DNA from: a virus
Lineage: Duplodnaviria; Caudoviricetes
IMG/VR virus record: IMGVR_UViG_3300028833_000053
Length of the DNA stretch: 64,000 nt
Reading direction: 5' to 3' (one strand)
The notes beneath the pieces were generated by a model. The model was not told where the DNA came from and made no database searches. It saw only the letters and a list, made by a program, of their open reading frames with translations. Shown here piece after piece: positions 1 to 64,000 of the stretch (position 1 is its first letter; each line of letters starts with the position of its first letter). A program made the translations under genes and the position numbers.

Positions 1-3000
1 GCGCGTTCAATGTACTTTGGCAGAAGTTCCGAATACTTGTCTTGGTATTGCTCTGGGTTCTGCCTCACCTTGTTCACCATCTGGACAAGGCTTGCGCGTT
101 CGGGGCTTCCCGTTATGTTCGCAAGGAAGAGCTTCGTGAAGTCCTTCATTTCGTCAATCTCTGAGAAGTAGCCGTTGCGTATGTCCTTCCATGACTGGTA
201 GTGTATGCCATAGAGACGTCCGTTCAACTCGAAAGCCACGCCCTCAAGAGAACCATCGTCAGCCGGCATTATGCCGGGGTTCTTGAACTTCTTCTTCATC
301 AAGTCCGTCATGGATGCGTTTATCTAGTCCCTTACGGTCTCCGCCTGGTCTTTCTTCATCTTCTCGGGTGGCGTGTTCTTCAAAGCCTGTATGACTTCAT
401 CCGGGAAGTCCGAAGCAGAAACCTCAACTTCCTGAGCGAACTTGTTTATATCGAAGTAGGAGGCTGAGGAATCCGAAAGTTCGGAGCAGGCGAAGTCAAT
501 CACCTTCTGCTTCTGCTCCGGTTCAAGGTCAAACGTCCTCTCCTTCGTCATACCCTTCGCGTCAATCACAACAAGAGAACCCTTTGAACCCAGCTTGTTC
601 GCGTCATAGGTCGTGCCGACATAGGTTATGGTTCCGTTTTTGTCCTTGAACTCGTCGCCATTCGCAAGAAGCTCGCCAATCAACTTCACGCCCTCAACCC
701 CAACTTCGTGAAGGAAACCAGCCATCTTCTTGTTCTGGTGTTGTTCAACGTAGTCGTAGAAGTTCCTTTCGTGTGGGTGTACGCTCTTGTTGGATTCCAC
801 GCCCTGCTTGTCCATCAACCCGGAATATGAAAGCTCCATGAACACCTTGCCGTCCATCCAGGCAACCCTAAAAGGATAGCCGTCAATCTTTGGCGTGGTC
901 TTTATCATCAACGAGGAATCGTTCACTCCCGAAATGAAGTCCTGAAGAAACTGGCGCAAGTCCTTTCCAGTCAATTGGTGGATTTTCGTCATGGCTTGAC
1001 GTGGCGTGTCAATCTCCGCCATGTCCTTCGTGGAACGTATGGATTCGTCGATTTCTTCCGGTGTTTCGTAGTCGCTCACCTTCAATCCAAGGAAATCCTC
1101 CAGTTCGGGTGGTAGGTAGTCTATGCTTCCCTTCTTCAAGGGTCTTTCAATTCCCGTCTTGAGGGATTTCTTGAACTGCTCCGCCCTTGCTGGGTTCTTC
1201 AATATCCCCTGCTTCTTCACGGCTTTCCAGGCATCTTCCCATGTGAGCATGTTTGCTGAATCCACCCCAAACAGGATTTCGCATATTTCGTCCGGGTCGT
1301 TGGAAACAAGTTCACGTCCAACTTCCTTTTCGCCAGAAACATGGATTCCCTCTTCACCCTTCTTGCCCTTCATCAAGGGACGCTCAAAGATCTTCTTGAA
1401 CAGACCACCTTCCTCATGACTGTACGAGTATCTTTCCCATTTCACGGGCTGCTCTTCGTCATAGCCATTCACCATTCCAGTCTCTTCTACCCTGAATCCA
1501 GACACCCGGGCGGTCGCCGTGATTATCTGGTTGCGCACAAGTCCCTTGACGTACTTCTGCCCCTCGATTTCCTCCGGCCCATATTGTCCCCAAGCCTGGA
1601 ACTTGAGGTTGTCAACGGGAATCAGGTCAAGTTGAACGATTTGCCCTTCTTGCTCCCCATCGTCGTTGCTTATGGGATAGCCAACGGAAGTCCCTTGCCA
1701 TTCCCATCTTGGGAAGTTCTTCACGTCAAGACCGTACTTCTTGCCAAACTCTTCCGCAAGGTCAAACCATTCGCTCACGTCCGTTATTCCCTGTTTCTCT
1801 TCAAGGGCTTTCTTTGAGATTGCTATGTCTATGTCACCACTTGAACCACCGTCAAGTTTCTTTCCCGTTGAGCCTAGAAAGGAGATGTCATCGTCGGACA
1901 ATCCGAAAAACTCCTTCACCTTCTGTTTCGCGGAGTCCATCGTGGATTTCGCGTTGCGCTGGTTCAATCTGACGGCGCCCGGTATTCTATGTCCGCCCTC
2001 GTTCATCAACTTGCTTTCGCTTGTTGGCTTCTCCTTCTTTGGCTTTGGGGGTGGTGGCGTGTAGTCCACAAGGTCAAGTTCCTCCAGCATTTCCTGTGGG
2101 ATGGTCATTCCCGCGTTTATTTTTCCGATTATCTTTTCGCGCAGGGAGTCCAAGAAGATTTTCCACTTGTTCGAGTCTTTCGCCCAGACGGCTTCATGCG
2201 CAGCTTTCCAAGTTCCGTCCCACGTCATCAAGTCCTTGCCCTTCACCTTCGGACCAAACATTTTCTTCGCTATTTGGTCGGGATCGTCCGTGACAAGACT
2301 TCTCTTCGCTTTTTCGCCTGACTTGTACACGGTGTCCGTTGCGCCCTTTGGTTGGTTTGTCATGGGTTCACGATAGCACTTCTTGATGTTGAGTCCCTCT
2401 GGCGTGTAGAAGGAATATTCCTCCCATTCCACCATATCCTCCTTTATCCCGTCCTTGCCTTTGACAAGTCCAGTCTTTATAACTTTCACGTCGTCCATGG
2501 CGTGAGCCGCGGCCTCGAATATCAAGTTGCGTATGCAACCCTTTATGTATTGTTGACCTTCAATTTCCTTGGGTGCGTATTGAGACCACACTTGGAACTT
2601 CATGTTCCTTGAAGTCATCATGTCAAGTTGGACAAACTCACCCTCTTGCTTGCCGTCGAAATTCTGAATTGGACACTTTATGGAATAGAGGTTGCCTTTC
2701 AGCCTTGACTCTATTCCCATCTTGTTGAGTATGGGCGTGGCGTATTCCGCTATGGCTTTCGCTTGTTCATCAGCGGTCATAGCGTCCTTGAGATAATCCA
2801 CCTTCGTTGCGTCTATTCCAAGGTCAATGTCACCGCTTGAACCCCCTGCCAGCTTCTTGCCCGTGCTTCCCAATGGCTGCACGTATTTTCGGCTTATGCC
2901 AATCGCCGGAAGTATGGTTTCGTAGATGTACTTCAACGTTGCCGCCACGTTCTCCTAGTGGATTCGCGTTGCGTCATCAAACATGTTTCCACCTTCAAGC

Positions 3001-3083
3001 ATCAAGTTCTTTTCTTCGCCCACAAGGATGTCACGCAAGTCGTTTGCGTCCATTTTGCTCACAAGTTCTTTTATATTGTCCAT
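1..3083 (-). CDS. Multidomain protein: two tandem polbeta-superfamily nucleotidyltransferase-like domains plus a C-terminal ATP-dependent ligase-like (KxDG) domain; runs off the window; code 15
   Basis: ATG at 3083; in-frame TAGs at 2955-2957 and 324-326, frame then open to the window edge. Two copies of LGSTGKKLxGGSSGDIDxxI...VQLD; third domain TPKIDG...IGELL...SLEGVAF (ligase motif I/III/IV-like, motif IV lies after the second TAG). Confidence 0.75.
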
Positions 3084-3115
3084 ACTGTTGTACCCGTAGA
3101 TTTCTGGTTCTATGC

Positions 3116-3147
3116 TATTTACCATTCTTCTTCAGATATGGTAAATA
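3116..3147. promoter_or_regulatory. Divergent pair of late-type promoters (TATTTAC / GTAAATA)
   Basis: TATTTAC 3116-3122 and GTAAATA 3141-3147 between two divergent genes; variant of the T4 late promoter TATAAATA. Confidence 0.7.
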
Positions 3148-3155
3148 GAAACACC

Positions 3156-5042
3156 ATGAAAACCAAATCCCATTTCAACGAAGGCGGAAACATGTTTCCC
3201 GATTGCGTTCCCATCCACCAGGAGAACGTTGAAGCGACTTTGAAGGACATACAGGAAAGGTATTTGTCCAAGCAGTTGCATCTTGACCCAAAGACCGACA
3301 CATCCACGTTGGGGTCTACCGGAAAGAAACTCAAAGGTCAGACCAGCAACGATATGGACATTGCAATCGACTACAACAAGTTGAAGGAGATTTGGGATTT
3401 GCCAGAATGGACGGGGAAGCGTCTTGAGGAATGGGTGGATTTGGCGAAGGATGCCGCCGACAAATGTGGCGTTCAATTCAATATGGCCGCCACGGTATGT
3501 TCCCTGCGTTGGCCGATAGCAAACGCTGATGGGGAGCAAGAAGGTAAATTCATACAAGTTGACTTGATGCCCACGCCCAACATGAAGATGACAAGTTTCG
3601 GAAGGTTTTCCCAACAGGCGAAGGCTGGCGAGACTTTCTTCAAGGGGACTGTCAGGAACATAATGCTTTCCATAATGGCGCGTTGCTCATACCATAAAGA
3701 CTTGACCGACGAAACCCACGTCAAGGTTCTTGACGATGGCACGGAAAAGGAAGTACACAACGAGTACGAGGGTTGGACGTATGACGGCAACACCGGACTT
3801 CACCTTTGCCACAAGAAGTACGAGCAGTACACCAAGAATGGCAAGGGCTACAAGAAGGGGGATTGGAAACCCCATGCTTCCGTTGTTGAATCTCCTGTCA
3901 TTTCATCTGACCCAGACGAAATCGTGGAAATGATATTTGGCAAGGGCGTGACTCCTGAGGACATTGACACCGTGCAGAAGATGTGGAAAGCATGGAAGAA
4001 CGCCCCAGCGGTGAAAGAGAATCCAGATTTGCTTCAAGAGGTGCGTGAACAAATTGAAAGGTCATCCACAAGAAGTCCGGACATCCAATTCCCGGATTTT
4101 GATGGTGAGGAATTCGTCAATGAAGCGAAGATTAAGAAAGACCCATCCGAGCAGGTTGACGATTACATCAAGTCCCTTTCCAGAGATCAAATCCAAACTC
4201 TCACGTTGAGGTGTTCAGAACTTTTGGACAAGTGGAACGAGCCACAGGGTTCCGACACAATCCTCAGAGTGAGGCATGTGGTGGACAACGATGAGAGGTT
4301 CCTGAAGTTCTTGCGCAAGACCGTTCCATTGACGGAGCCAAAGCCCCGGGACATGGGCGCAAACACTTTTGTTTCGCGTTTCTTCGACCCGCCGTTTGAT
4401 CTTGAGGAGTTCATTGGAAAGATGGCAAAGGAGAAAGGCATACCCTTTGCGCAAGCGGAGGAGGAATGGACAAGAAGCAACATGGACAAGACACACGTTG
4501 GAAGATACGCCCATATGCTTGCAGACGATGCCGTGAACGGACGTCCGCCCTCAAAGGAAGGTACTAATCCAAAGGAGATTGCCATTTACACCGCCATTTA
4601 CGACTACGCCAAGAAGCTGGTTGAGGATGCCACAGACGTTGAAAGCGAGGTTTCCCTTCACGCAAGTTCGGCAACAGTTGGTGGCAAGTTCGACTTGTTG
4701 ATGAAGAAGAATGGCGTTTGGACTTTGGTTGACTGGAAAACCAATGGCGAGGAACTTGATGACATTCCAACAGGCAAGGTTGGACTTGACGAATTGACAA
4801 AGGACATCAACAACAACTCCTACAACAAGTACGCGCTCCAGTTGAACGTCTACGAATGGGCTGCGAAGGACTCCGGCAAGATTCAGAAGGATGCCGTTGT
4901 GAGCAAGGAACTCCACCACTTCCAGTACCTTGAAGACGGCAAGCCGGTGAAGATAAGGGTGGTCAAGGTTCCAGATCTCCAGGAACTTGTCCAGGCGATG
5001 GTGGAACGGGCAGTTGAAATGGGCGTCGTGAAACGGAAATGA
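3156..5042 (+). CDS. Polbeta-like nucleotidyltransferase domain fused to a C-terminal PD-(D/E)xK (RecB/Cas4-like) nuclease
   Basis: ATG 3156 just after GTAAATA; LGSTGKK...SNDMDIAID...QVDLM; C-terminal HVGRYAH...ESEV...GKFDLL...VDWKT...YALQLNVY. Confidence 0.75.
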   Translation: MKTKSHFNEGGNMFPDCVPIHQENVEATLKDIQERYLSKQLHLDPKTDTSTLGSTGKKLKGQTSNDMDIAIDYNKLKEIWDLPEWTGKRLEEWVDLAKDAADKCGVQFNMAATVCSLRWPIANADGEQEGKFIQVDLMPTPNMKMTSFGRFSQQAKAGETFFKGTVRNIMLSIMARCSYHKDLTDETHVKVLDDGTEKEVHNEYEGWTYDGNTGLHLCHKKYEQYTKNGKGYKKGDWKPHASVVESPVISSDPDEIVEMIFGKGVTPEDIDTVQKMWKAWKNAPAVKENPDLLQEVREQIERSSTRSPDIQFPDFDGEEFVNEAKIKKDPSEQVDDYIKSLSRDQIQTLTLRCSELLDKWNEPQGSDTILRVRHVVDNDERFLKFLRKTVPLTEPKPRDMGANTFVSRFFDPPFDLEEFIGKMAKEKGIPFAQAEEEWTRSNMDKTHVGRYAHMLADDAVNGRPPSKEGTNPKEIAIYTAIYDYAKKLVEDATDVESEVSLHASSATVGGKFDLLMKKNGVWTLVDWKTNGEELDDIPTGKVGLDELTKDINNNSYNKYALQLNVYEWAAKDSGKIQKDAVVSKELHHFQYLEDGKPVKIRVVKVPDLQELVQAMVERAVEMGVVKRK

Positions 5043-5086: not shown

Positions 5087-6367
5087 ATGAAATTCAAGAA
5101 GATTGTTAAAGAGGCATCTGATTTGGATGATAGAGACTATGAGACTGCGCAAAGCATGTAGGATTTTGCGAAAGAGAACATTCCTGAAGTCAAGGCAGTT
5201 GTCTCTGGAAGCGAAAGGGGAAAGCTATATGTGATGATCAAATCAGATGTATACATAATGGCTGACCAGGCAAAGGAAATCGCAAAGGAATTGATACGTG
5301 GAACCGGTGCCCGTGGCTACCGGTATGCTGGGGTGAACAAGGCAGATCCATATATTGTCCTTGTGAACAAAGGTGTCAGAATGAACGAGGCGAGGAAGCC
5401 AATGAAGAAAGCGCAGAAGAAGCAACAGTGGTGGTTTGACATTCCTGGCGCGAAGTACATCTACCACGGAGACTGGTCTGACCCTGAAATCCAGTACAAG
5501 GGTTTCTCAATCAACTATTGGGACGTGGAGGAAGGTTTGCTTTCAGCCTACCGTGACGAGCATCCAGAAGACAAGGATGACAAGGGATTCGACGCGTGGA
5601 TGGCTGAACAGGGTGGACCCGGTGGATACCTTGAAGGTGAACTTGACAATTGCATTTATGCAGCACTTGGCGACGACAACGTTGAGGAAGAGCCTTGGCT
5701 TGGAATACCGGACGCCTACAAGGTGAAGGAGGTCTATGGTCAGGGAGAAGGTGAGTTCATCTTGTACAAGGATTGCCTTGTGAACGTTGCGGACGTTGAC
5801 TACTATGATTCGGAGTATGATGATTGGTATCCCTATTCCGACAATCCAGAGAACTTTGAGGCATACTATAGCGATCCGAAGAACAAGAAGGAACTGGTTG
5901 ACAAGCTCAACGAGCAGGTTTCCTACTACATGAGCGAAAGCACGAAGTTCAACGAGGGTTGGCTTGGTGATAAGGTGAAGGCCGGTTGGAACAAGGTCAA
6001 GGACGGAGCCAAGAAGGTTGGCAAGGCAATTGGAAAGGCTTTGAACGGTCCGTTCAAGAAAGGTGACGTTGTTCAGATGTCTGGCGAGGATGGTGAGAAG
6101 TTCAAGGGAACTATTATGGGCTATGACCGTGGCGAACAAACATACAGTGTGATGCTGGGACGCTAGGTGGCAAATGAGGGTTTGCAAGAGGACGTTCTTG
6201 ACATGGCCGACAGAGAGGACGAGTTGGTGTGGATGATTCAAGAGAAGTTCTGGGATTTGGCCGAGGAAGCCGATCCTGACAGTTTACGCCAACTCATAGA
6301 GAACTGCGTTGAACTTGAGAAAGTCAAACCAGGGAAACTGGATGAGATTATCAACCAAGAGTTCTGA
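5087..6367 (+). CDS. Hypothetical modular (probable head-internal) protein, 426 aa, code 15
   Basis: GTAAATA 5048; ATG 5087 MKFKKIVKEAS; TAGs at 5159 and 6164 join ORFs 5231..6166 and 6167..6367; modules separated by NEA/NEG; TGA stop. Confidence 0.75.
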
Positions 6368-6446: not shown

Positions 6447-6845
6447 TTAGTGGGTATATCTTTCCGTAAACTACCTAAACAATAGGTTGCCATAAAGAAA
6501 CGCCTCACTTTCAATCTCCTTAAGTTCTGGGTCTTCATTCAACGGCTTGTCAGACACATGTCCTTGAAATCCCTGTGGGTCAACTAGATTTTGGTTGCGA
6601 TGAACCATTTCGTGACAAAACGTCCGAAGAATGTCCTTGATGTGCCTGTTGTCTATGAACAGTACAAGATGGTTGTCGCTTGGATCATAATATCCGGTCT
6701 TTATGAAAAGTTCATCTTCTGGATTTGGGGTCTTGTCAAGGGTGATTCTCGGAAGCGGTTCCACTTCAAATCCAATTTCTCTGAAATACTTTATGATTTC
6801 CTCAATCCAGTAGTTCAGCATGTCTATCTTGGTTTCATTGTCCAT
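6447..6845 (-). CDS. Zincin-like metallopeptidase (HExxH)
   Basis: HEMVH...EIESEA; TAG at 6471 read as Gln, TAA at 6447; late promoter TATTTAC at 6854-6860. Confidence 0.7.
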
Positions 6846-6891
6846 GGTACTGTTATTTACCACAATTTGCGTGGAATGGTAAATAGTTGAT

Positions 6892-9648
6892 ATGAGGAAA
6901 TATGTTCTTAACATAGACCGTCTTTATACGGGAGCCACGTCCAACGCCTTGGTGTTGAATCAAGTTGACGAGGATTTGCCAGTTCTTATTCGTCAGATTT
7001 CTGGAAAGGAACTTGAAACACCAACTATGTGGTTGGAACGCAGGAAGAAACTGCATCCAGGATTTGACCCAGAAACCTATTTGGGGGAGCAAGAAACAAG
7101 ACAGAGTTTTTAGGAAATTTGGCATTGGAACAAACGGCTTCAAAATATAAATTCCTACATAGACCACATAAACCAACTTGCACTGTCAACCAATCCAGCG
7201 GCGAGAACAATACCGCACTTGAATGGGAAAACAGAGACTCGCACGTTCCAAGAATGGGCGAACGCCGCAAACGTCATAAACAGGAATTTTCTTCCGGCTT
7301 CAATATTTGGTTGGTGGAAACCGGATGATGTTCTTGAATTCTTGTCAGAATCCAGATTGTCAAACCAACTTGACCAATTGAATAGATATTTGGATTGGTT
7401 CAAAGTACCCTTGATAACGAAGAGGAAAGACCTTGCAGATGAGAACAAATATTGGCTGGACGGTTTGGTTTTCTTGATGAGGAAAAACCATCCGGAGTTT
7501 TCCGAAAACGTATACAGTGCCAAGTATGACGATCTTCGAGCCTTCGTTCAGATGAACTATGCGCCATCGTTCAATCCAGTTGAGGAATTTGGTTGGTGGA
7601 CTGACGACATCCTCAACATGAGTATGCAGAGCATATTTTATATTATGGAAAAAGACCTTTCCGTGTTGAATGGCTACATACTTGATTTCAACCTTGCCTT
7701 GCAGGAAGAATTCAAGTCAAGGGGACACGATGAACTTTATTTGATGGATGATACCCAACGCATGAAGCCGGACGAAGAGGACAAGAGCGTTTCCTCCGAA
7801 AAGACATATCTTCATTCGTTGAATGGCTGGAAGGACATTCAGAGGAATGAAACAACGCCGGATAAGTATGTCAACTCCTCTCAGTTGAACGTTCTTTTTC
7901 CGTTCAAGAAAACCACAAACAAGTCATTGTATGCATCCCAACTCAAGGTCACGTCGGCAATTGACATCGACGACATTCTTGAACGTTCCAGGAACATAAC
8001 TCTGCAGGGAAAAGTGAGCTATGAGAAGTGCGTCTAGTCAATGGCATAGACTGGAAACAACCTTTACGTCATGTCAACGATGATTGACATTGGAAACGAT
8101 GATTCCGATTCACATATCATTGGAAACCACCTCACGGTTCTCAATGGATATGGCAACCCCTATCACTTTCCCAACAGTATGACGCTGTTCCAGCCAAGTC
8201 AGGAGCATTGTGACGGCCCCAACTTGGCAAAGGTTGACGGAACCACCAATTTCATAACTTGGTGCAAGGCGCATGACAGAAAGTTCCGTGTCAGGCTTTC
8301 GGATATATATGGCGGCAACGTTTCGCCGTTGAAATGCCTCGGTCCGGGATCATATGAAATAGACCTTGCCACATACGGACCAACGGACATTGTTCTTGAC
8401 AATGGATATGAGAGGGAATATGTCTCTTTGACAAGCGAGACGTTCAGGAAGATACGAAACGAGGAATTTGAAACCGACTTGTACGATGACAGAACCTATG
8501 TCATAGACAACAGGCGTTTGGACGCAGGTGATGACATCAGTGACGTTGGGTTGATGTTCAACTTGTATGACACGTTCATCACGGGCAAGGACAGGATATT
8601 GTCGATGAGCGTTCCATCCGACAAGGACTTCAACAGGTTGTTCTTGAACTTTGACTGCATTTCCCACATTGAACCCGACATGGCCGAGACCATGGAAGTT
8701 GCAGTCTATATCAACGAGGCGAACAACTCCTATCTTGTGTTCGAGGGTGAACTTGGAAAGAACCACGATCTTGATTCCAAGAAAACTTGCAGCTATTCCT
8801 TGGAGGATGCCGCCGTTTCCTCCCACAATCTTCAGATAGTTGTGCGTATTCACTACACCGTGGATTTCGGCAAGCGCAACAGCGAAAAGGCGTACAGAGA
8901 GAAGTTGAGGAAGTCCGGCGTCATATTGAACAACATACGCATCGAGAATGGAATCGTGGAAACTCTCAACCGCCTCACGTTCGGCTCCTATGTGAATGAA
9001 TCCGGAATAGGCGAGGAAGAGCGCGACAAGAGGTATGACGAGTTTTGGCAGGTTTCCCAATACAAGAAGGACATTCCATACCAAACGGTGTTGGAGACTT
9101 CATTGAGAAGAACATCAACCGCGGGCATAGAATATCCCAATAACTATTCCAGTGGCGACATCTACGCGGATATGTTCATGACAAAATCCATGCTTGACCC
9201 AAGATACGACATGAACATATTTGTTGATCCAAGCAACAGCAAGATGCTCAGGGCGGAAGGACGTGACTACATAGGTCTTGGACAATGTTCAAATCAATTG
9301 TCCTTGTTCTACAAGCCCATTGACGTTTCAATTGGCTATCAGGAGAACGCCGATCAAGTTACGGCCTATCGTGTGAACCCCGAACCTGACTTAAAATATC
9401 AGATGGTGGAAGTTGTCAAGAACATAAACCGTTTCGAGTCATCCATCAAGCACAAGTCCAACGTGTTTTCAGTTGTTGTTCAGAACTCCAATCTTGCTCC
9501 AAGTAACAAGAAGGACAAGACGGATGACGAGGAAAAATTGGAAGAGTACAAGGAGCGGTTGCGTGATTCCATAACTCAGTTCGTGAGGAACACTTGCGAG
9601 AGCATAGTTCCGGTGCATACGCAATTGTTTGACGTTCAATTTACATAA
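6892..9648 (+). CDS. Large virion structural protein, possibly baseplate wedge component (918 aa, code 15)
   Basis: TAGs at 7111, 8035 and 8047 join three track ORFs in one frame; GTAAATA 6879; C-terminal IVPVHT resembles the PAH/PAG ending of baseplate wedge proteins (weak). Confidence 0.55.
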
Positions 9649-11772: not shown

Positions 11773-13644
11773 TCAGAGGTCATCGTCCTCAAGTTCGGAG
11801 TCAGGAAGGTCAATTTCCTGGTTTTCATCGTTGGAAGTATCGTAAATGTCCTAGATGCTCAATCCAAAGGTGACATTGTATGTTCCACCACATTGATCGC
11901 AGTAGAAACTTGCGTCAAATGTTCCACCCTCCTTGCAGTCGCCTTTCAATATGTCAAGGTCATCAACGGTGCATCCCGTAAACCCGCATCTGGGGCAGGT
12001 GTGCGCCTTGTCGGCTTTATGACTTTCCCTGAACTTCTTGGTGGATTCATCATATTCATCATCACCTGAAAAGTCTGTGGCGTTGTAGGAGCCGAATTCC
12101 TCAAGGTAGTCCATGAAGGATTTTGGATTTGTCTCAATCCACTCGCGGATTTGTTCATCGGAAGGCTCTTCATATGGTTCAAGACCAAGTTCCTATTCAA
12201 GAAGAGGATATTGCCTGCAGTCCTTCTTGACAATATAGTAAACGTCATCCCAAGACATTTCAACATCAAGTGGTTCAACATACACGGTTGTACCCCAATC
12301 CTGTATTCCAGGCGCAATGTCCTTTATGGATTCCTTGAACATCAGGATTTTCCCCTTGTTTGTTTTATACATGTTTCCACTTTCTGAAACATATTTCAGT
12401 TTTCCGTATTTCTTCGTGAAGTACCTGGACTTCTCAAATCTTTCCTTTGTCACGTTTATCTTCTTCATAGATTCGTTGAATTCGTTCCTGTTTTTGGCAC
12501 GTATGGTTTCCAGGCATTCCGGTTCGCCGTAGATGTCTCCATTTGGCATTTCATATTCGCCACCCATAATGCTTACAGAAACTGGTTTGTCCTCAATGGC
12601 TGAATATTCATCGTATGCTTTTTTGCCATCTTCAACCGCATCGTCAAATGAATAGTAGATCTTTGCGTATTTCATTTCATCAACCACTTCGTATTCCCCG
12701 TATTCGTCCATACGTTCAATTTGCAGCGTGAACACTTCCTTCTTTTCGTTTTTCATTTCTTTATGTCCTCTTGTAGGGCTTTCAATCGTATTTTCGGAAA
12801 CGGGCGTTGCCTTTGGCTTCATGTATTCGCCATCAACCTGGTCGGTCTATGGCATGTCTCCGCGTCCATGTGCGTTTGGCGTTGGCCGAGCCTCGTCCCT
12901 CATCACCAACACGTTGTTCCACAGATAGTTGATGGGTTCTTCCTCAATGTACTTGGCAAAGGTGTTTTGTGCATCTTCACTCATCGTGGACTAGCACCAT
13001 TTCTTGAACGCCCCCTCGTCAATCGTGTAGAGGTTGTATTCTGAATCCACCGTAGCCTGTGGCAACTCTCCACCATCCTTCGCTATGAACAACTGCATCT
13101 GCACCAGCTTCAAAACATCGTCCGCGCTTTTGAACATATCGGACTTTATCACGCGCGCAATCATCTTCGCGTCGGGGTTCAAGCAGTAGATTTGGCTCCA
13201 TCTGTGGTGGCCGTCAATGATGTAGCTTACCCCATCAACTTCAGCGACAACAAGTGGCGTGTCCTTGATTATGACGGGCTTTCCAGAGAACGCCATGTCA
13301 ATCATTTCCGGACGCTTCTCCAATGGGAACGCCAGGGACTTTTCCATGTCAACCTCGAACTGGGTTGGATGGATGTTGCGTATGTCCATTTCCGTTGCGT
13401 TGGAGAATTGCACGGAAACGCCGTCGGGACTGTTGAACTTGTCAATGATTGCATCGCGCAAGTTCGCCACTTTCTAATCCGTAGCCAGTGTGTTCAAGTC
13501 GTCTATGAACGCCTCGTAGTTGTCATCCTGCAACGCCACCATCGCGTTGTGGAAATCGCGTTCCGTGTCGCCGGTTGGCTCTATTTCATTTATGCGCTTT
13601 CCACCAAAATCCGTTTTACGTTTCTCTTTCAATATCACTTTCAT
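11773..13644 (-). CDS. Modular protein (623 aa, code 15): ParB/Srx-like N-terminal domain, repeated KKxNxTKE module, C-terminal Zn ribbon
   Basis: TAGs at 13474, 12991, 12847, 12193 and 11851 join three track ORFs; HPTQ...IIDGHHRW...RGDMP(TAG)TD; CPRCG...CDQCGG; TGA at 11773. Confidence 0.7.
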
Positions 13645-30848: not shown

Positions 30849-30990
30849 GTTGTTTTCCTCAATCTTGTAATGCTTGGAACATGTATTGACTTGTATGTAT
30901 TTACAAAAGATGGGGCTAAATACAACATAACTAATGGGTGTGCCATAGTGACACACCCACATAAACTTACGTAAATTTGCGTTACGTCAA

Positions 30991-47588: not shown

Positions 47589-48290
47589 ATGTTGAACATA
47601 GACAATTTGATTGAAGCCGGCGTCCAAACAACGTAGGACATGGAAAAAGCGAAGAAGGGGAAGAACAGAAACGCAAAGGAAATCCCCTTTGAGATTGACG
47701 GTCACACCTACCTTTTGGACTCACAGGAGGAATGGTGCATGTTCAACTGGATTAAGGAAATGAAGGAACGTGGACTGATCTTGGATTATGTCTACCAGCC
47801 GGAGCACTGGGAATTGACCCCAAGGTTCGAGTACACGCCATATCCAACGGTTGTGGATAAGAAGAAACGCCCCGTTGACGAGAAGTACGCGAATGTCCCA
47901 AAGCCATTCAAGACGAAGTTCTTGATGCATCCCCATATCTACACAGCTGACTTCACGTTGAAGTTTGACGCGAACAACCTGAAGTTGATGGAGTATTTGT
48001 CCCAAGCGTTCAAGTTGAGGTTGGACGATGTTTACGATGGGGTTCTGACTTTGGTGGTGGATGTGAAGGGAACGTTCATGAGCAATGACGGTGGACGTTC
48101 CTTCTCCATAAACCAGAAGTTGATGATGGCGGTTCACAACGTGTATGTCAACAAGTTTGTTCCGAAGGAGGCTTTCAAGAAGTTGGGCGTTCCAAAACGC
48201 TGCACAACCACCATGAAGTCCGGCAAGGCAAGCAAGGTGTTCAAGGGGATGAACTTCCTGGAGACCGTGTTGAAAGGATATGGACTATGA
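47589..48290 (+). CDS. PD-(D/E)xK endonuclease (DUF1064 / T7 endo I-like)
   Basis: DSQEE...YQPEHWEL...YTADF...VDVKG; start 47589 (AAGGAG RBS) requires one TAG read as Gln, otherwise the start is 47640. Confidence 0.65.
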
Positions 48291-52114: not shown

Positions 52115-52513
52115 TCAACGGCTGATTTCGTTCATTAGGATTGGGGCAAGTTCACCCATATAAGGAAGTGATCGTGCAGTGTTATATGAAGTCCAGTCTT
52201 CAGCTTCTTCATGTGTCATACCTTCCCTCATCAAGCATTCCTGGAATCTCTCAACGGAATAGATTATGTGGTTTCCGTCATAGGTGACGCCGATGATGGC
52301 ATCGGCGTACTGTTCCGGCGTGTCGCCAATGAATATCAAGTCCTCGTTGATGCTCTTCAATTCCTCCACGCATCTGGTTTTTTCCATTTGCTCCTGCTGT
52401 TGCAGAAGGGTTTTCGTTTCTTCCACAACGTCAATTCCCATTTCCTTCAATCCTTCTGGGTTTTCAACAACGGCGTGAATCTTTCCGTTGTCTGAGGTAA
52501 ATTCCATTTTCAT
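52115..52513 (-). CDS. Conserved phage hypothetical protein
   Basis: YADAIIGV...IYS...GMTHEEAEDWTSYN...YMGELAPI. Confidence 0.6.
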   Translation of the reverse strand: MKMEFTSDNGKIHAVVENPEGLKEMGIDVVEETKTLLQQQEQMEKTRCVEELKSINEDLIFIGDTPEQYADAIIGVTYDGNHIIYSVERFQECLMREGMTHEEAEDWTSYNTARSLPYMGELAPILMNEISR

Positions 52514-52824
52514 CAGATTTGTTCTCCTTTCAAGTCCACCTTTGACACGATATGGTCCGTGTCGAAAATCTTGTACTTCTTCCCTTCAAGGGTGATGTCA
52601 ATTCCAACAGCTTCCGTTATGACAACATCCCCAACCTTCAGGGTTATCTTGGGATAGGCGAATTCCTCTCCTCCGCCATATACCCATTTCACCCTGTAGA
52701 ATTTCAGGTTCTCCTTGCAAAGCCTGTCGTCAAGTTTGGTTGAAGTGATGAAGAAACTGCCCTAGTCGGTGTTTCCGCATTCTTCGCAAATGACGCGCTT
52801 CTCTCTGGTTATCGTCAAGTCCAT
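52513..52824 (-). CDS. GroES-like co-chaperonin (103 aa), visible only in code 15
   Basis: ATG 52824, TAG 52762, TGA 52513; LKVGDVVITEAVGIDITLEGKKYKIFDTDHIVSKV matches the GroES C-terminal half. Confidence 0.65.
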
Positions 52825-53509: not shown

Positions 53510-55438
53510 TTACAAGCCAAACTTCTTCAATTTGTCGTTCAATTTACGAGCGGTGTTTGTTGTGCGCTCTACAATTACAACGTCTTCTTCGGGATCAAGT
53601 TGGCTACCTGAGCTTTCCTTGTCTCCGTCATCGTTGTGTACCTGCTTGTAAGTCATTACAACGCCAGAACCCTCGGATTCATGTGCGTCACGGAATCCAA
53701 TCTTGTACTTCTTTCCTGTTGTGGAATCCACGAATGTAAGGCGGTTGATGTCAAGTTCAACGTCACCGTTCATCTTCATGGTTGTACTGGAGCCAAGGTC
53801 AAGATTTGCTCCGTTCTTCAACACAAGCGATGCTCCGTTCTGGAACGTGACTTCGGCGCCATTTGCCACATGTACCTTGCTGTTCTATCCAACGAAAACC
53901 TCGGCGTTGGAATTGACAACGCCATTGAGTTCGGTTATTCCATCGGACTTCAAAAGGTTGTCCGTGTAGACAACGCTGGATTTCACACCGGTTGTAACAA
54001 GTTTGTCAACGTGGAAATGGTTTGCATTGAACTTGTAGGCTTCAAGCGCGGAGAATTTGCCTTTTTCCGCAACAACGTTCTTCATCAAGATGTTTCCAGA
54101 GTGATCTATTCTGTATTTCCCTTGGTTGATGGAGAACCTCTTTGGCGCATTTGGATCGTTTTGTTCGCGCAAATATGTGATTGGGTTGATGAGGGTCTTT
54201 ATGGTCTTTTGAATGGACTCGTAGTTGACTTCGTTCTTCTGCATTGCTTCGTCAACCATTGCCACGGGGTCAAAGTTCTCTTCTTCGTATGTCTCATCTT
54301 CCTCGTCGCTTGGCCCGGCTGGAATTACATTGACCATTTCATCTTCATACAAGTCCCAGTCAGTGTCAGATGTGAAACTTATGCCAGAAGATGGGTTGTC
54401 ATCCATCAATTCCTTGTCGCTTGTCAAAAGGAAGTTGCTGGTTATCAACTTGGATTCATCAAGGAACAGTTTTGAACCATGTATCGTCACGTCACCTTCA
54501 ATGAGAGACTTTATGTCGCGGTCAATCAAAAAGCCGATGTTTCCGGTGCTTGTTCCATGAATTTGCAAGGTGCTTACTCTGGACAGACCGTTCACCTCCA
54601 TTCCATCATCAAAGGAAACCTTGCCCTTGTTCACCTTGAGAGATATGCCATTGTGCAGCAACGCTCCCTTGATTGTGAGGTCGTTTTCAATTTCCACCTT
54701 GTTCTTGATTGAAAGGTAGGAGATGGTTGCAGTGTTGGTTACTTCCGCATTGATGGTGGAAAAGCCATTGGTTTTCAATTGGGTGTTTATGGTGGCTTTT
54801 TGGGCGGTCAAGCTATTTATTTCGGCCTCCTTCAACACCTCAAATTTTTCATTCGCGGTGAACTTCCGGGAAACCTCAACTTCCATTGGATAAAGTTTGT
54901 TGGTGTACAAAGTGGATAGTTTCATGGTCATTGGTTCTGCACCAATCCACCTTGTACCAATGTCTATCATGAACAGATTGGAACCGACAACCAAACGTTG
55001 TGAGGCATTTAACACGGGTGCAGTCAATGAATCTGCATTATAGAGTGAATCAAATCCAATCTTTATCTGCCCATCACCAAAGCTGATTCCACCCCTGAAG
55101 TTGCAGTTCTTGTAGAAGTTTATGGAATTGCCTGCGGATGACATGACAACACTGATGTTGTTGTTCTAGTTCTTTTCCCTTATTTCAAGGGTGTTTCCCG
55201 TAATTTGCCCGGCTGCTTCCAAGTTACCGTCCACATAGGTGTTTCCATGCACCGTGACCAAGCCCTTGTCGTCAATGGTTATTGGGCCGTCCTCTTCACT
55301 TTCGCCAGATTCCACCTGAACGGTTGTTCCCTCCGTAGTGGTTGTGCTTGTTTCACCAGTGGTGTCACCCTCGTCCTTGGAGCTGGAAGTGGGTTCATCA
55401 ATGTATACAATGCCATTCTCGTCTATTCTTTCTGCCAT
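53510..55438 (-). CDS. Beta-strand-rich late structural protein (tail/baseplate spike-like), 642 aa, code 15
   Basis: TAGs at 55166 and 53885 join three track ORFs; late promoter at 55475. Confidence 0.65.
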
Positions 55439-55561
55439 GGTATTTCTCACATGTTAGGATGCGTTTTCATCTAGTATTTACAAAAATGGAGCATTTTACC
55501 CTATGATGGTAAATAGATACATTGAAGGTTCAATCCGAATAGAGAGACAAGGTAAACCACC

Positions 55562-57121
55562 ATGGCACAGCAAATTCAATTTATATATTTGACTCAAAGT
55601 GATTTTGACAATCTGACAAGTAAAGGAAACAAGATTTACTTCACGTCTGACACAAAGAGAATATACAGAGGATCGGATTTATACGCTGCAACTTCATTTG
55701 ACCAATTGAATTTCAGCTCAATAGAGGCTTCTGACATAAAGGTGAATGGAAACGCGGTGTCGCTTGAAGGACATACCCATTCCGCTTCGGAAATAGATGG
55801 ACTTGAAGCGTTTGTTTCTGCGGCAACGCAGAATTTTTCATAGAACGGACACAAACATGCCATAGCGGATGTCACAAACTTGTCGGGGATAGTTGCTGGC
55901 ATAACAAACACCACTGTGTCAAAATCGTCAGGTTCGTTCAACACATTGACCGTTGGGGGTTCAAACGTCTCGGTTGAAGGACATACGCATTCCATTGACG
56001 ACATTGAGGACTATGAGGACAACACATTTTGGATTACAGGAAGTGTCAATACATAGACATTGGAAATTCAAGTTGATTAGGATTTCGAGGATGCAGTTGA
56101 AGCTGCTGATGCAGGAAAGCACATTAGGGCAAAGCTGGACTATACAGGAAATGGTAATTATGTATGTCCTTGGGCAAATGTAATATACAACACAAATGGA
56201 ACAGTGGATTAGTTTGACTTTCACATAATGCTTGACACGGTTATGTTGAATCCTGACGCAAATTGGCATCCATATTTGATTGGTTTCACTTGGAATTCAA
56301 ATGGATTTGATGTGCGTCCATATGAACTTTCTGAAACCAACCATGAACATGACATAGAGGACATAACCAACCTGTCAACCATACTCACTGGAGTCAGTGA
56401 ATCATCCCTGACAAAGGATACCATTACGGGGGACATCGGAAACTTCAGATTGCTCTCGGTAAGTGGTTCTGCCAATTTCGCTGTGAATAACGTGTCAGCA
56501 AATGCCGTTTCTGTGAATGGAACACCAGTTTCACTTGAAGGTCACACGCATGGCGTTTCTGAGGTTACAGGACTTGCCGCTGCCATATCCGCCGCGACTT
56601 CTGGATTCGCCTCAAGTCAGCACTCGCACAGTCATGTTGACATAACGGACTTCAACAGTGCTGTTGTGACAGCCGGTTCTTCAAGTTTCGCTCCAATCAG
56701 CCATTCACACGCCATTTCCAGCATCACAGGTCTGACAGCATCCCTATCTGAACTAAGTTCGTCAATCCAAAGCCTCCAATCCCAGATTGTGCCAGTCCAA
56801 TGCATCACATTGGCGCAATACGAGGCACTTCAGCCGGCTGACGCAAGCACAATCTACTTCATTTCCGATGGAAACAGAATCTACAGAGGTTCTGTGCTAT
56901 ACGCAGCAACAACGTTCGACCAGTTGAACTTCAGCTCAATAGAGGCAAGCGGCATAACGGTGAATGGGAACGCCGTGGCACTATCTGGACACACTCACGC
57001 GATGTCTGAGATTGGAGCGTCCACTGCTGCATAGACTGCAATAAGCGCAATAACCAATGCCTCAACTATATAGTAGATGAAGTCTGCCTTGACTGCATTC
57101 CTTCAGAACTTCGTATCATGA
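55562..57121 (+). CDS. Tail-fibre-like protein with HxH repeats (519 aa, code 15)
   Basis: Seven TAGs (55841, 56054, 56078, 56210, 57032, 57071, 57074); repeated SLEGHTH / HxHxIxDIT motifs; about 50-aa internal duplication IYFxSDxxRIYRGSxLYAATxFDQLNFSSIEAS. Confidence 0.75.
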
Positions 57122-57518: not shown

Positions 57519-58781
57519 ATGGCAATACATATAGGAAACATTGGGGGTGGAAGCATAGTGGTTGATGGCAAAAAACCACTGTTTTCCTTTTCTGCAATTT
57601 CGGACATACATCTTCACGACAACAATGATGATAGTGGATACGACGATTTGGTGAATCTGTTCCGAGTTCTAGGAAACAGAATTCAAGACAAGGAATTGGA
57701 TTTGCGCTACATCTGCGCCGCCGGCGACATTGGAATGGGTGGAGCGAACAAGGAGCTGTTGACATTTTCCAAAATAGTGGACGCAAAATGCCCTATTTCC
57801 AACAAGAATGTTTTTTCTTGCACCGGAAACCATGACCAACAGCATACGTGGCAGGAATGGACGGATTACATGTTTCCCGAGTCATTGCACAGTCAAATCA
57901 CTTCTGACTTGAATTTTGTCAAGGAGGATGGAAACTTTGTGTTTGCTTTTATGTCTATGGCGCATCAGAATGACAGAAGTACAACAGTAAATGGTAGGAT
58001 ATGTTTTTTGGATGATAGTAATTCAGTTTCTGGTTCAGGAACAAGACAATGGCTTCGTAATGTTGTAGAGTAGGCAAGAAACAAAACATTGATTTTGTTT
58101 ATGCACTATCCTTTCCAGAACAGGCGTTGTTATGACAAATCCACTACATCAATCAACATATATGATTGGGCTACGGGAAATTACATACCAAAAACGGTGA
58201 ACGTGGCCGAAACAGCGGAACAATGGGCAGGTCTTCTTGATTTGGGTGGTTCTGCAGGTAGCAATGAGAGTTGTGCCAACTATGGTTTCTATTGCAAGGC
58301 TGCCGCTTCAATTGATTATTCAACACCCAGTGAGTGTGAACAAATAATGGCGATTCTGAATCAACATGTTGGGGGAAAAACCATCGTGTTTTCCGGACAC
58401 ACACATCTTGTATTTGAAACTGAGCGTTTTGATTATGTCATTGGAAAAGGCTATCCAAATGTCAATGTGGCATATGTGAGGAACTATGACCCTGACAAGA
58501 ATGAATACACACCAACCAACATCGTCACAGTTCATATTCCATCCTTGAATCATCCAAGGAAGCTCAAGGTTTCAAGCATAGGCAGTGTGAGTGGGTGGGA
58601 AACTATTTCTGGCGCAAATCCATATCGTCAACCATGTCAATCCTGGCTTGTGGATGTATATGACAACAAACTTGTGTTGAATGGTTTTGAAACTCAGGTT
58701 TCACATGACAAACGTTATGGCGATATTTTGAACGATTATATCTACACTATAGACTTGACAGATATAGTTCCGGTTGCGTAA
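57519..58781 (+). CDS. Calcineurin-like metallophosphoesterase (420 aa, code 15)
   Basis: SDIH, AGD and GNHD lie before TAG 58071; MHYP and SGHTH lie after it. Confidence 0.85.
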
Positions 58782-59087: not shown

Positions 59088-59693
59088 ATGAAACGTATTA
59101 TACAAGTGAATGAGAGTTGGGATCCTGAATACGATGACAAGCCAGTGAACCAGTTTGGGGAGAAGTGGGAGAAGATTTCGGGAACATGGCTGAACCAGGT
59201 GATAACGAACATCATGAAGGATGTCCAGATAGACCCCTTCGAGGACGGACCAAAGATGGAAAGTTTGAGTTTGGGCAGCTTGCATCTTTGTGAAGATGGG
59301 CATCTCATAGCCACTGTGTATGGCGGTGCCAACGGTGGTGGCATACGGGGCAGGGAATCCAATTGGACGTTTTACATGTCCTTGGTTAGGAAGTTTCTTG
59401 GCAAGATTCTTGACTACGACAACGGCCAGTGCTTCAAGGACGTTTGGATGATAGATTGGGACAACGATTGCTGCGATGACGTTTGGACTTTGAGACTTGG
59501 GCTTGAACTATCCGACGAAGAGAAACTCCAGTTGACCCAATGTGGATTCAAGGTGATTGATCCAACCTAGTTGAATATTGGACTTGACGCTGCAATGGAT
59601 ATGTTCACGCCATATCCCATGGCGCAGAATGTGGATTGCTCAAACCCCTACAATGAATCCAAGATAAATTGGCGCAAAATAAGTGCCAAGTGA
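59088..59693 (+). CDS. Hypothetical protein, code 15
   Basis: MKRIIQVNES leader; TAG 59568 read through to TGA 59691-59693. Confidence 0.6.
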
Positions 59694-60403: not shown

Positions 60404-63337
60404 ATGGTTGAACCTGACTATAGATTGGATTTTGACGTAGAGAAGATACGTGATGTGATTGAACCGAACGATGGCTACACATGGGTTTACTATGACCCAA
60501 TGGGCATGGACAGGAAATTGGGGGAGAATGGGAAGATTTGGTTCAAGTGCTACGAGAAGGACACCCACAAGCCCATAGTTGTTGAAGTGAAGAACTTTCC
60601 CTCTACCCTGTGGCACCGTGTTGACAAGTCCGACGAAATGGCTAAAACCGGAATGGTGGATGCCTATGGTATGCCTGTTGTACAGGAGGTTTTCGACAAC
60701 GTGGCACTTCGCCGCCAATGGGTGAACACATGGAAGAAACGCTCCGACTATTGCGAAAAGCAGATTGTGCAGAACCAAGACCCTTGCGACGAGTTCATGC
60801 AGAAGGTGTTTTGGAGGGAGGCTCAGGAGGAAAGTTTCAACAAGGGCTTCCAGCGCGTGTTCTACATTGATATTGAGACCGAGGTTTCGTCAACGTCTCT
60901 TATGCCGTTCAAGGCTGTTGACAAGATGTTGATGATAACCATATACGACAACAAGACGGACAAGTTCTACACATGGTCTTTGAATCCCGCGGAAGTGGAG
61001 TTTCATGACAGTGTTGATGAAGAGGGGAACGTGACATGGCACAATCCCTTGAAGGACTATCCAAAGGACAAGTTTGTTCTGTATGACAACTTCAACGGGA
61101 ATGAAGCCGAACTGCTCAAGCACTTCCTCTACTTCTGGGCAACAAACTATCCAGACGTTGTGTGCGGGTGGAACAGCCGTTGGTACGATATTCCCTATAT
61201 CGTGAGGCGTATCGAGAACGTTCTTGGCAAGGCAAAGGCGCGTTTCCTCTCTCCGCTCGAAGACTACAAAATCATCCATGAGAAGTCTGACAAGAAAGAC
61301 GAAAACGGCAAGTGGATTGAGAAGGAAGAAATTGAGTGGGTGGACATCAAGGGCATATTCCAGGCGGATGAACTAATCCTCTATTCCAAGAAGTTTGGCG
61401 TGAAGCAGGCTCTTGATGGCGGCTATGGTCTTTCCAACGTAGGACAGGCGGAGGGCTTTGGTGGCAAGGTTGCGTATGAGACAACGCTTCTTGACCTGTA
61501 CAACTCCGACTGGCAGAAGTTCTATGAGTACAACGTCCGAGACGTTGAGCTGCTATGGTCTATCGAGAAGAAGTGCAAGTTGATTCCATTGGCGAGAACC
61601 GTGGCGGGGTTTGGACTCGTGAACTATGACTTCATCTATCAATCTGCCCCGTATCTTGTTCCGACCATCACCATATTCTGCATGAAGCACCGCGAGAACA
61701 TGATATTCAATTCCTACGCCAACAACTTCCGCGAGAAGGTCAAGTTTGAGGGTGCGTGGGTCATTGACCCGGTTGTTGGGCGGTATTCCTATGGCACGGC
61801 AACGGTGGACTTCAATTCACTTTATCCTTCCTGCATGAGAATGTTGAACCTCTCAATCGAGACCTATGTTGGGCGGATTGACGATGGCTATTCCGGTGTT
61901 GGCGGACTTGACAACGATTGGATGCAGCGTGGTGGAATAGACGGCTATCCAGACGACTATCTGTTCAAGTTGATTATTGACAGGGTTGACATTCAAACCC
62001 CGATTGAGAAGGAGATTGACGCGAAGACCCTACGTCATTTGCTTGACACCAAGTTGATTATCTGTCCAACGAACATGACGTTGTTCTTGAAGCATGAAAT
62101 CAAGAGGGGCGTGATTGCGGACTGGGCGGAGGTTTTCTTCAACCGACGCAAGGCAACCAAGGACGAGAGGTTCAAGTGCGACAAGGCAGCCGACAGGACT
62201 TCTGACCCAGATGAGAAGGAGAGGTTGATGACGAGAGTGGAGAATCTGGGCAACCTTCAGCAGGCGTTGAAGATTTGCCTTAACTCCATCTACGGTGCGT
62301 TGTCCACCACGGGTTGTCCGTTCCTGCATTCAATCGGATTGGCACAATCCGTGACAAGGGCTGGACGTTTCTCAAACTACAATGGAAGGTTGTTCTACCA
62401 GAAGTGGCTGCAGGAGAACTACAACATACCTGACGATTACGTTGTCACGGCGTCCGGCGACACCGATTCCTACTTCATGAACCTTGAAGCGGTCACAAAG
62501 GATTTCATGGCGAAGAATGGTTGGGACAACGACTTGAACAATTGGACTGACGAGCAGAAGTTGACCCTCTGGAACCACATGCAGAAATTCACGGACGAAT
62601 ACCTTGTCCCCCATGTCCAGGAACTCGTCACGAAGGAATTTCACACGTCAAACGCTGCCCCGATGAAGTATGGCTTGGAGTACATGACTTCCGGTGGCAT
62701 ATTTGAGTCTCCGAAGCACTACATTGTACACAAGATTGTTGACGAGGGTCCGAAGATTGTGGATAAGTTCAAGTACACTGGAATCGAGTTGAAGAAAGCC
62801 ACCGTGCCACCGGAAATCAAGAAGTTCATGAAGGACATCTACTTCACCGCCGTGCTTGACCCCAAGTTTGACCTTGAAGCCGCGAAGAAGAAGATGGACG
62901 AGGTTTACCAGGAACTTTTGAAGATGTCACCGAACGAGTTGGCGAAGTGGCAGGGCTATGGCACGGAATCCCAGATGGACGGCTTCTTGGTTGAGGCAAA
63001 GGGCGCGACCGGAATCGGCAAGTGCGCAAACTACTACAACCAGATAATGCACAAGTTGGGGTTGGACAAGAAGTACGCCCTGATAAACGTCAAGGACAAG
63101 ATTCAGACCATCTACATCAAGCCCACGAACAAGTATGGCATTTCACAGATAGGGTTTCCGCCCCGCCAATGGCCGAAGGAGTTTGACGACGTTTTTGAGA
63201 TTGACTATCCGAAGATGATGGAGAAGGTTGTCATTTCCCCGTTGAAGGGTATGCTCAAGGCTCTGCACATGGACAGTCTCATTAAGTACAACCCCAGCGT
63301 GTCAGCTTCATTGGAGTATTCGGTTGACGATATTTGA
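60404..63337 (+). CDS. Family B DNA polymerase (T4 gp43-like)
   Basis: DIET, GWNSRWYDIPY, YNVRD, DFNSLYPS, KICLNSIYG, GDTDS, KHY, GIELKK. Confidence 0.96.
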   Translation: MVEPDYRLDFDVEKIRDVIEPNDGYTWVYYDPMGMDRKLGENGKIWFKCYEKDTHKPIVVEVKNFPSTLWHRVDKSDEMAKTGMVDAYGMPVVQEVFDNVALRRQWVNTWKKRSDYCEKQIVQNQDPCDEFMQKVFWREAQEESFNKGFQRVFYIDIETEVSSTSLMPFKAVDKMLMITIYDNKTDKFYTWSLNPAEVEFHDSVDEEGNVTWHNPLKDYPKDKFVLYDNFNGNEAELLKHFLYFWATNYPDVVCGWNSRWYDIPYIVRRIENVLGKAKARFLSPLEDYKIIHEKSDKKDENGKWIEKEEIEWVDIKGIFQADELILYSKKFGVKQALDGGYGLSNVGQAEGFGGKVAYETTLLDLYNSDWQKFYEYNVRDVELLWSIEKKCKLIPLARTVAGFGLVNYDFIYQSAPYLVPTITIFCMKHRENMIFNSYANNFREKVKFEGAWVIDPVVGRYSYGTATVDFNSLYPSCMRMLNLSIETYVGRIDDGYSGVGGLDNDWMQRGGIDGYPDDYLFKLIIDRVDIQTPIEKEIDAKTLRHLLDTKLIICPTNMTLFLKHEIKRGVIADWAEVFFNRRKATKDERFKCDKAADRTSDPDEKERLMTRVENLGNLQQALKICLNSIYGALSTTGCPFLHSIGLAQSVTRAGRFSNYNGRLFYQKWLQENYNIPDDYVVTASGDTDSYFMNLEAVTKDFMAKNGWDNDLNNWTDEQKLTLWNHMQKFTDEYLVPHVQELVTKEFHTSNAAPMKYGLEYMTSGGIFESPKHYIVHKIVDEGPKIVDKFKYTGIELKKATVPPEIKKFMKDIYFTAVLDPKFDLEAAKKKMDEVYQELLKMSPNELAKWQGYGTESQMDGFLVEAKGATGIGKCANYYNQIMHKLGLDKKYALINVKDKIQTIYIKPTNKYGISQIGFPPRQWPKEFDDVFEIDYPKMMEKVVISPLKGMLKALHMDSLIKYNPSVSASLEYSVDDI

Positions 63338-63390
63338 TTCATCTTTGTAAATACATTCATAGGCAACCAATTTACGAAGGTGAAACAACT

Positions 63391-63882
63391 ATGAAGAAAC
63401 TGAATATCACGAAGGAGCGTTTCGAGAAGTCGCGCTATTTTTAGAGGAAGTATGGGAATCTTGAATATGTTTCCGAAAGTGGAAAGCTGTTCAAGACAAA
63501 CAAGGGCAAGGTCTTGAAGTTCAATGAGGCCGTCCATCCACATGAGACCGACGTTGATGTTCCTGTGACAGACCAGGAGAAAACTCTGTGTCAGTACATT
63601 GGAGATGAAATTGAAGGGGAATTTAACGATACAACGGGTTTGGAATTGACATGTGGTTGCAACTGGCACAATCCTGGAGAAGAGCAGCATATTGAAATTT
63701 TTGTTGGCATTCCTGAAGAGGATGATTCATCCGATCCAAAATATGACAACATCGAGACGTTCTTGGAGCAGTTTGTCAATGGAATCGGAGACGCCGAGAA
63801 CGAGGGCGAGAAGTGGGGAGATGCCAGTTTCCAGTGGATAAGCGACAATGAACTGTTTGGCGAATTGTGGCCGATTAAGTAA
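63391..63882 (+). CDS. Late protein: KKLNITKE module plus acidic domain, code 15
   Basis: GTAAATA 63347; MKKLNITKERFEKSRYF(TAG)RKYG, TAG at 63442. Confidence 0.75.
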
Positions 63883-63896
63883 GGTGAGGAATGAGC

Positions 63897-64000
63897 ATGA
63901 AAACCATAAAGGAATCATATGAGGTTTCGGATGATCTCGCCAAGAGATTGAATTCAATCCTTGCCGACGAGTTCCTGGCTGCGGAAGCCTATCGTCTTGC
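63897..64000 (+). CDS. Partial ORF, possibly ferritin-like (Dps-like/bacterioferritin)
   Basis: MKTIKES...LNSILADEFLAAEAY resembles ferritin-like helix A; truncated by the window end. Confidence 0.4.
   Translation, partial: MKTIKESYEVSDDLAKRLNSILADEFLAAEAYRL

Follow-up and report, generated by a model that had tools for sequence, protein, structure and literature searches.

The 64,000-bp stretch analysed here (the window) belongs to IMG/VR virus record IMGVR_UViG_3300028833_000053 and corresponds to positions 23,500-87,499, read on the reverse strand, of one 433,895-bp contig (G000). IMG/VR lists this contig, which has a GC content of 47%, as viral, 100% complete by CheckV and bounded by direct terminal repeats. 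Judged from its genes, which encode a gp23-type capsid protein, a contractile sheath, a gp6 wedge and a gp55 late sigma factor, the phage is a T4-like (gp23-type) myophage, and the best matches of its capsid protein are the gp23 proteins of T4-like cyanophages (~30% identity). Two complete relatives are present in IMG/VR, G001 (414,060 bp) and G002 (418,068 bp), and their capsid proteins are ~80% identical to that of G000. Many genes of these phages are interrupted by TAG codons, which are the subject of this report. We conclude that in the complete genome of this rumen megaphage TAG has very probably been reassigned from stop to glutamine (NCBI translation table 15), and that TAA and TGA still act as terminators.

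In-frame TAG codons in the window

Our gene model places 40 in-frame TAGs in 20 genes of the window, and the count becomes 47 in 21 genes (Table 1) when the gene at 55562-57121, which carries seven TAGs and was dropped by the greedy gene finder, is added separately. A hand count in the original prediction, which had proposed code 15 for this genome from internal paralogues and domain continuity, was about 46 in 21 genes. The five TAGs on which that proposal was built (2955, 63442, 58071, 38370 and 25530) do lie in frame within long open reading frames (ORFs), and its reading of their surroundings is borne out as follows: RIH[TAG]ENVAATLK at 2955 aligns correctly with PIHQENVEATLK in the divergent paralogue on the plus strand, and SRYF[TAG]RKYG at 63442 with ISYFQRKYG in a small plus-strand ORF (a third copy of the latter module, at 12423 on the minus strand, has T at the TAG/Q position). 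Metallophosphoesterase motifs I-III precede TAG 58071 and motifs IV-V follow it, and the Pfam Metallophos match (residues 26-204) spans it. The N-terminus of gp6 lies upstream of TAG 38370, which the PHROG 219 baseplate wedge match (32-191) crosses, and leucine-rich repeat (LRR) periodicity continues through TAG 25530, where an LRR_5 match (889-997) runs across the codon. Two kinds of TAG in these counts may not be sense codons within genes: TAG 33742 directly precedes a TAA, and TAGs at the extreme 5' ends of genes (e.g. 5159, 46941 and 32127) may precede the true start.

Reading frames beyond the three stop codons

The three stop codons were compared genome-wide by extending each confident code-11 ORF in frame past its stop and scoring the extension as coding when its coding score was above 5. 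The extensions past TAG (n = 93) have a median length of 96 codons and 67% of them score as coding, versus medians of 12 and 9 codons and coding fractions of 9% and 10% for those past TAA (n = 114) and TGA (n = 188), respectively. A mirror test with the segments upstream of each ORF gave the same contrast between TAG and TAA/TGA, and the same read-through signature is present in G001 and G002. Recoding of TGA or TAA is ruled out by their short and mostly non-coding extensions, and genes called under code 15 terminate in TGA (272) or TAA (155).

Could the interrupted frames be pseudogenes, or else artefacts of assembly or sequencing, in a phage that uses the standard code? Apart from the in-frame stops themselves nothing points that way, and the chance that it is so is negligible, since TAG alone is read through and never TAA or TGA, the pattern is common to three independently assembled complete genomes, and both coding statistics and domain matches persist across the TAGs.

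The number of genes called by our own codon-usage finder (greedy and crude) falls from 73 under code 11 to 56 under code 15 in the window and from 526 to 427 genome-wide, and the code-11 calls are fragmented, much as the original prediction foresaw in stating that standard annotation would shred the genome. About a quarter of the genes are split or truncated by the standard code, including those for the baseplate wedge, late sigma factor, tail fibres and giant virion proteins, and table 15 has to be applied wherever gene functions are interpreted in this genome or in its rumen relatives.

Identity of the residue inserted at TAG

The residue that TAG specifies can be estimated from the relatives as follows: all code-15 genes were translated with X at TAG and aligned with G001 and G002 by tblastn, and the codon opposite each TAG was read. 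There are 145 distinct TAG sites inside such alignments. The 130 alignments with well-conserved context have CAG (43), TAG (17), CAA (14) and AAG (14) opposite TAG, followed by scattered Glu, Asp and Asn codons; among the codons listed there are none for Tyr or Leu (TAT, TAC and TTG are essentially absent), and Ser is represented only by TCG, twice. The codons opposite TAG thus vary as genuine CAG and CAA codons do between these genomes. When substitution frequencies are estimated from these alignments, glutamine is the maximum-likelihood meaning of TAG by 102-168 nats over the next residue at every stringency, and in the reverse comparison (TAGs of the relatives against G000 codons) it is ahead by 130 nats.

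The gp55-like protein provides a second comparison. Among its 42 database homologues, Q occupies the three TAG columns in 6 of 7, 38 of 42 and 24 of 42, and one of these columns is in the conserved motif NPFAYFTQ. Together with the alignments to the relatives, this makes glutamine by far the best-supported meaning of TAG. Internal paralogues have Q opposite TAG in ~10% of cases versus a background of 2.2%, with G, K and R equally common; they are too divergent to fix the residue by themselves.

A tRNA with a CUA anticodon

The original prediction had suggested searching the rest of the genome for a tRNA-CUA, glutaminyl-tRNA synthetase (GlnRS) and release factor 2 (RF2). There are no tRNA genes in the window and 36 in the genome, one of which has the anticodon CUA and is 90 nt long; ARAGORN and Rfam both find it, on the complementary strand and beyond the limits of the window. 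A sigma70-like promoter (TGGATA-16-TATAAT, 10/12 matches) lies ~54 nt upstream of it, and ahead of that promoter a hairpin followed by a T-run can be seen by eye. The corresponding slot of G002 also holds a CUA tRNA, preceded by the same 25-nt element as in G000, but its body differs (77 nt versus 90 nt) and its variable region is short; this part of G002 (267.1-268.8 kb) has ~1.35 kb extra before the shared downstream gene when compared with G000 (410.4-410.7 kb). The searches of the complete genome for the synthetase and the release factors gave no match to PF00749, PF00472 or PF03462 (GlnRS, RF-1 and PCRF, respectively), and the core of class-II synthetases of the pyrrolysyl-tRNA synthetase (PylRS) type, PF01409, was also not found.

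A plausible route to glutamine at TAG would begin with early transcription of tRNA-CUA by the host RNA polymerase. The host GlnRS would then charge it, as suggested by the finding that the phage encodes neither GlnRS nor a PylRS-type core, and the charged tRNA would outcompete host release factor 1 (RF1) at UAG. That GlnRS accepts CUA anticodons is established knowledge and is noted by Borges et al. (bioRxiv 10.1101/2021.08.26.457843).

The shape of the tRNA raises the alternative that TAG is a sense codon for some other residue: Ser, Leu or Tyr, to whose tRNAs long variable arms are normally limited, or else Lys or pyrrolysine. Its variable arm is class-II-like and its best Rfam match is to tRNA-Sec, and in the alignments above Lys codons rank second among those opposite TAG; but glutamine is more than 100 nats ahead of Lys and further ahead of Ser, Leu and Tyr, the long arm is also present in Thr, Asn and Arg tRNAs of the same phage, and the CUA tRNA of G002, with its short variable region, lacks it. 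We therefore consider a residue other than glutamine very improbable. A class-II (Ser, Leu, Tyr) origin of the suppressor is ruled out by the codon substitutions and by the sharing of the arm with other class-I tRNAs, and pyrrolysine does not fit a genome in which no PylRS core was found, the tRNA is not Pyl-shaped and the substitution profile favours glutamine.

The long arms are a feature of the phage's tRNAs more generally. Eight G000 tRNAs whose anticodons are class-I or unassigned measure 81-97 nt (three Thr, Asn, Arg-UCU, Ala-UGC, one unassigned and the CUA suppressor). Most of the ARAGORN drawings inspected have long variable arms that form a stem, and several of the Leu tRNAs, at 77-79 nt, are short. 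Long tRNAs of this kind number only one or two in the relatives, so the arm insertions are lineage-specific.

Several findings weigh against recoding of TAG to glutamine. (i) The tRNA-Sec match of tRNA-CUA scores 33.6 bits, below the gathering threshold of 47; its long class-II-like arm explains both that match and its membership of the tRNA clan, but a long arm and a sub-threshold score also mean that glutamine identity cannot be read from the structure of this tRNA. (ii) G001 is recoded and has no detectable tRNA-CUA: low-threshold ARAGORN gave only noise within coding regions, a motif scan found none, and an Rfam scan of the stretch with a short flank match to the G002 tRNA-CUA was empty. 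Borges et al. detected suppressors in only 40% of TAG-recoded genomes (bioRxiv 10.1101/2021.08.26.457843). (iii) Neither RF2 nor GlnRS nor an inhibitor of RF1 was found in the complete G000 genome, which in this respect has no "code-change module" (phage RF2 and/or GlnRS). (iv) Many TAG sites have codons for Lys, Glu or Asp in the relatives; this fits the variation at glutamine sites, yet it means that single sites are not decisive. (v) The gain in coding density from code 11 to code 15 is small: with our crude finder, density is 0.796 under code 11 and 0.827 under code 15 for the whole genome, and 0.869 and 0.880, respectively, for the window. Density hardly rises because code-11 fragments are still called as ORFs and TAG is rare, and as a discriminator it barely separates the two codes. 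A comparison of the codes was to have revealed recoding both by fragmented calls and by density; the fragmentation was found, the gain in density was slight, and absence of such a gain, which the original prediction would have taken as refuting it, is a poor refutation test for this genome.

TAG usage and promoter classes

TAG makes up 7.0% of the glutamine codons genome-wide (269 TAG, 1,454 CAA and 2,147 CAG), or 2.2 per 1,000 codons, and is spread over the whole genome. It is absent from the most conserved or most expressed window genes, which encode the capsid, sheath, DNA polymerase, helicase and a putative NAD-salvage cluster. The position of TAG along genes is flat except for a small excess in the last tenth and an excess in the first tenth, the latter because start codons have probably been called too far upstream. 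The last ten codons of genes contain 16 TAGs where 9.6 would be expected, and true termination at TAG is therefore rare or absent.

Two motif classes are more than 10-fold enriched upstream of genes: GTAAATA (62 genes), which resembles the T4 late promoter, and GTATAAT/GGTATAA (~48 genes), which resembles the sigma70 -10 box and is often extended by TG. The TAG share of glutamine codons is 7.7-7.9% behind the late-type motif versus 4.7-5.6% behind the sigma70-type motif (odds ratio 1.4-1.7, p = 0.03-0.06). The bias of TAG toward late genes is thus at best real, and it is weak; a strict partition of TAG between early and late genes is ruled out.

The gp55-like late sigma factor gene (Table 1) lies behind a sigma70-like promoter motif. 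Its homologues occur in many ENA and Logan assemblies, where many public gene calls are N-terminally truncated; several of the records are named STEW18 and STEW19, which we take to be the Stewart cattle-rumen datasets. Three TAGs in this factor imply that late transcription should depend on the suppressor, and recoding could then act as a developmental gate in which late transcription is licensed only after the separately promoted tRNA-CUA has accumulated. We regard such a gate as a tentative idea that is probably not correct. As part of the same idea, their long arms might make the class-I tRNAs, the suppressor among them, independent of host factors that target tRNAs, or resistant to such factors.

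The same observations bear on another possibility, that TAG is a leaky, regulated read-through signal at which most ribosomes stop and only a fraction, rising as the suppressor tRNA builds up, make full-length protein; TAG would then act mainly as a brake on dose or timing. The three TAGs of the gp55-like factor, the modest late-class enrichment, the low TAG share of glutamine codons (with none in the capsid, sheath, DNA polymerase and helicase genes) and the failure to find RF2 or any other release-factor-related gene in the genome are all compatible with it. The two genes with seven TAGs each (24609-28433 and 55562-57121), however, would give almost no full-length product unless suppression were efficient, TAG is almost purged as a terminator, and it swaps freely with CAG and CAA between relatives as a synonymous codon would. 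A leaky signal is for these reasons unlikely, although less so than a residue other than glutamine.

Comparison with other recoded phages

Recoding of TAG to glutamine with phage suppressor tRNAs is known in the Lak, crAss-like, Garnet and Amethyst clades (bioRxiv 10.1101/2021.08.26.457843; Peters et al. 2022, PMC9523058). The phenomenon is therefore already known, as the original prediction stated in naming Lak, crAss-like and other gut phages, and a T4-like clade adds an example of modest conceptual novelty and high annotation value. G000 shares with the code-15 gut phages the alignment of TAG with glutamine, a phage tRNA-CUA, TAA and TGA stops, an animal gut habitat and presumably a standard-code host. 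It differs from the four clades in being T4-like (gp23, gp6 and gp55) rather than Lak- or crAss-like by its best capsid matches, in its 47% GC and in that no RF2 or GlnRS was found. Its recoding is sparse but genome-wide and weakly late-biased compared with that of the code-15 gut phages, and the rarity of TAG goes with a depletion of TpA (rho 0.51), whereas low GC is the starting point of the route that has been proposed for recoding. Recoding of TAG to glutamine is thus tied neither to low-GC lineages nor to strict confinement to late genes.

Amber suppressors of E. coli include supE and the tRNA-Trp su7, which with a CUA anticodon is charged with glutamine. Such attraction of GlnRS by CUA would explain glutamine insertion without a phage synthetase, although the body of the G000 tRNA is not Gln-like.

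Among rumen jumbo phages, 8.75% use alternative codes and CUA suppressor tRNAs are frequent, and a T4-type Portal_GP20 gene is restored under code 15 (Anim Microbiome 2026, PMC13037316). That survey calls recoding only if coding density rises by 10% (PMC13037316); G000 gains ~3 points by our crude estimate, so a test of this type could miss such recoding, and density thresholds in general can overlook sparse recoding. The Jug phages of gut Bacteroides or Phocaeicola are T4-like and 360-402 kb long, and are reported to give no evidence of alternative codes (Sci Adv 2026, PMC12880540). They and G000 are huge T4-like animal-gut phages of a similar size range, but the Jug genomes reportedly keep to the standard code.

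Genes and other features of the window

Table 1. Genes with in-frame TAGs, their TAG-free counterparts, and other features (window coordinates unless marked "genome")
Position	Strand	Gene or feature	In-frame TAGs	Remarks
1..3125	-	5' part of ~1,600-aa gene running off window start	2955 (codon 57), 324	2955 is CAG in both relatives, Q in opposite-strand paralogue
3150..5042	+	Divergent paralogue carrying the sequence aligned with TAG 2955	none	77-80% identical to G001, G002
5087..6367	+	Gene	5159, 6164	
6447..6914	-	Gene	6471	CAA in both relatives
6892..9648	+	918-aa gene	7111, 8035, 8047	8047 is CAG in G002; homologues in G001 and G002 also have in-frame TAGs
11773..13644	-	Weak ParB-like nuclease match (23.0 bits, Pfam cut-off 23.6)	13474, 12991, 12847, 12193, 11851	12991 aligns to CAG; 12847 kept as TAG in G002
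15338-18967		Tail sheath	none	
24609..28433	-	1,274-aa BspA-type LRR protein	seven, including 25530 (codon 968)	
28503..30089	-	Coiled-coil, fibre-like gene	29931	
30111..30962	-	Gene	30657	
31164..32180	-	Gene	32160, 32127, 31239	32160 is CAG in G002
32122..33747	+	Gene	32230, 33646, 33742	
33781..33951	+	Small ORF with ...ISYFQRKYG... module		Q counterpart of TAG 63442
35002..36369	+	Gene	36325	
36444..38531	-	gp6-type baseplate wedge	38370 (codon 54)	CAG in both relatives
39759-41366		gp23-type capsid protein	none	
44473..45759	-	Gene	45379, 45331	
46875..47579	+	Gene	46941	
47589..48290	+	Holliday-junction-resolvase-like match	47634	CAG and CAA in relatives
52513..52824	-	Gene	52762	
53510..55450	-	Fibre-like gene	55166, 53885	
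55562..57121	+	Phage tail-repeat protein	55841, 56054, 56078, 56210, 57032, 57071, 57074	Single tblastn match to G002 crosses four TAGs
57519..58781	+	Metallophosphoesterase	58071 (codon 185)	
59088..59693	+	Gene	59568	
60338-63337		Family-B-polymerase-like gene	none	Read from sequence only
63334..63882	+	Gene with module SRYF[TAG]RKYG	63442 (codon 37)	
in window		Head-tail adaptor and helicase genes	none in helicase	
genome 174288-174932	+	gp55-like late sigma factor	three	PHROG 234, E = 2e-21; outside window
genome 245657-245745, 310623-311078, 316584-316680, 322299-322386		Long tRNAs with class-I or unassigned anticodons		
genome 410487-410576	-	tRNA-CUA (long, class-I)		

The two head-to-head paralogues at 1-5042 have a common GGNMF...IHQENV...LGSTGKK...GDID module, which is repeated at least two times within the minus-strand ~1,600-aa frame. 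A second module, of ~45 aa (MKKLNITKE.F..S.YF.RKYG.LE.VSESG...KTNKGK.L.F.E), is present in at least six genes genome-wide: in the window it lies at 63334-63480 (+), 33781-33951 (+) and ~12300-12440 (-), and at least three more genes elsewhere carry it. Its setting is a free small ORF, the N-terminus of a gene or an embedded position in the ParB-like gene. A run of TAG-free genes occupies 19400-24429 on the minus strand and includes a 489-aa protein (21265-22734) that is Nampt-like by a reading of its sequence alone.

The TpA depletion (above) is strong in both the window and the genome. TAA and TAG are at ~0.35 of expectation in all six frames, in contrast to TGA at 1.34 of expectation, and many long spurious antisense ORFs result from this depletion, for example that at 39774-41345 (-) opposite the capsid gene.

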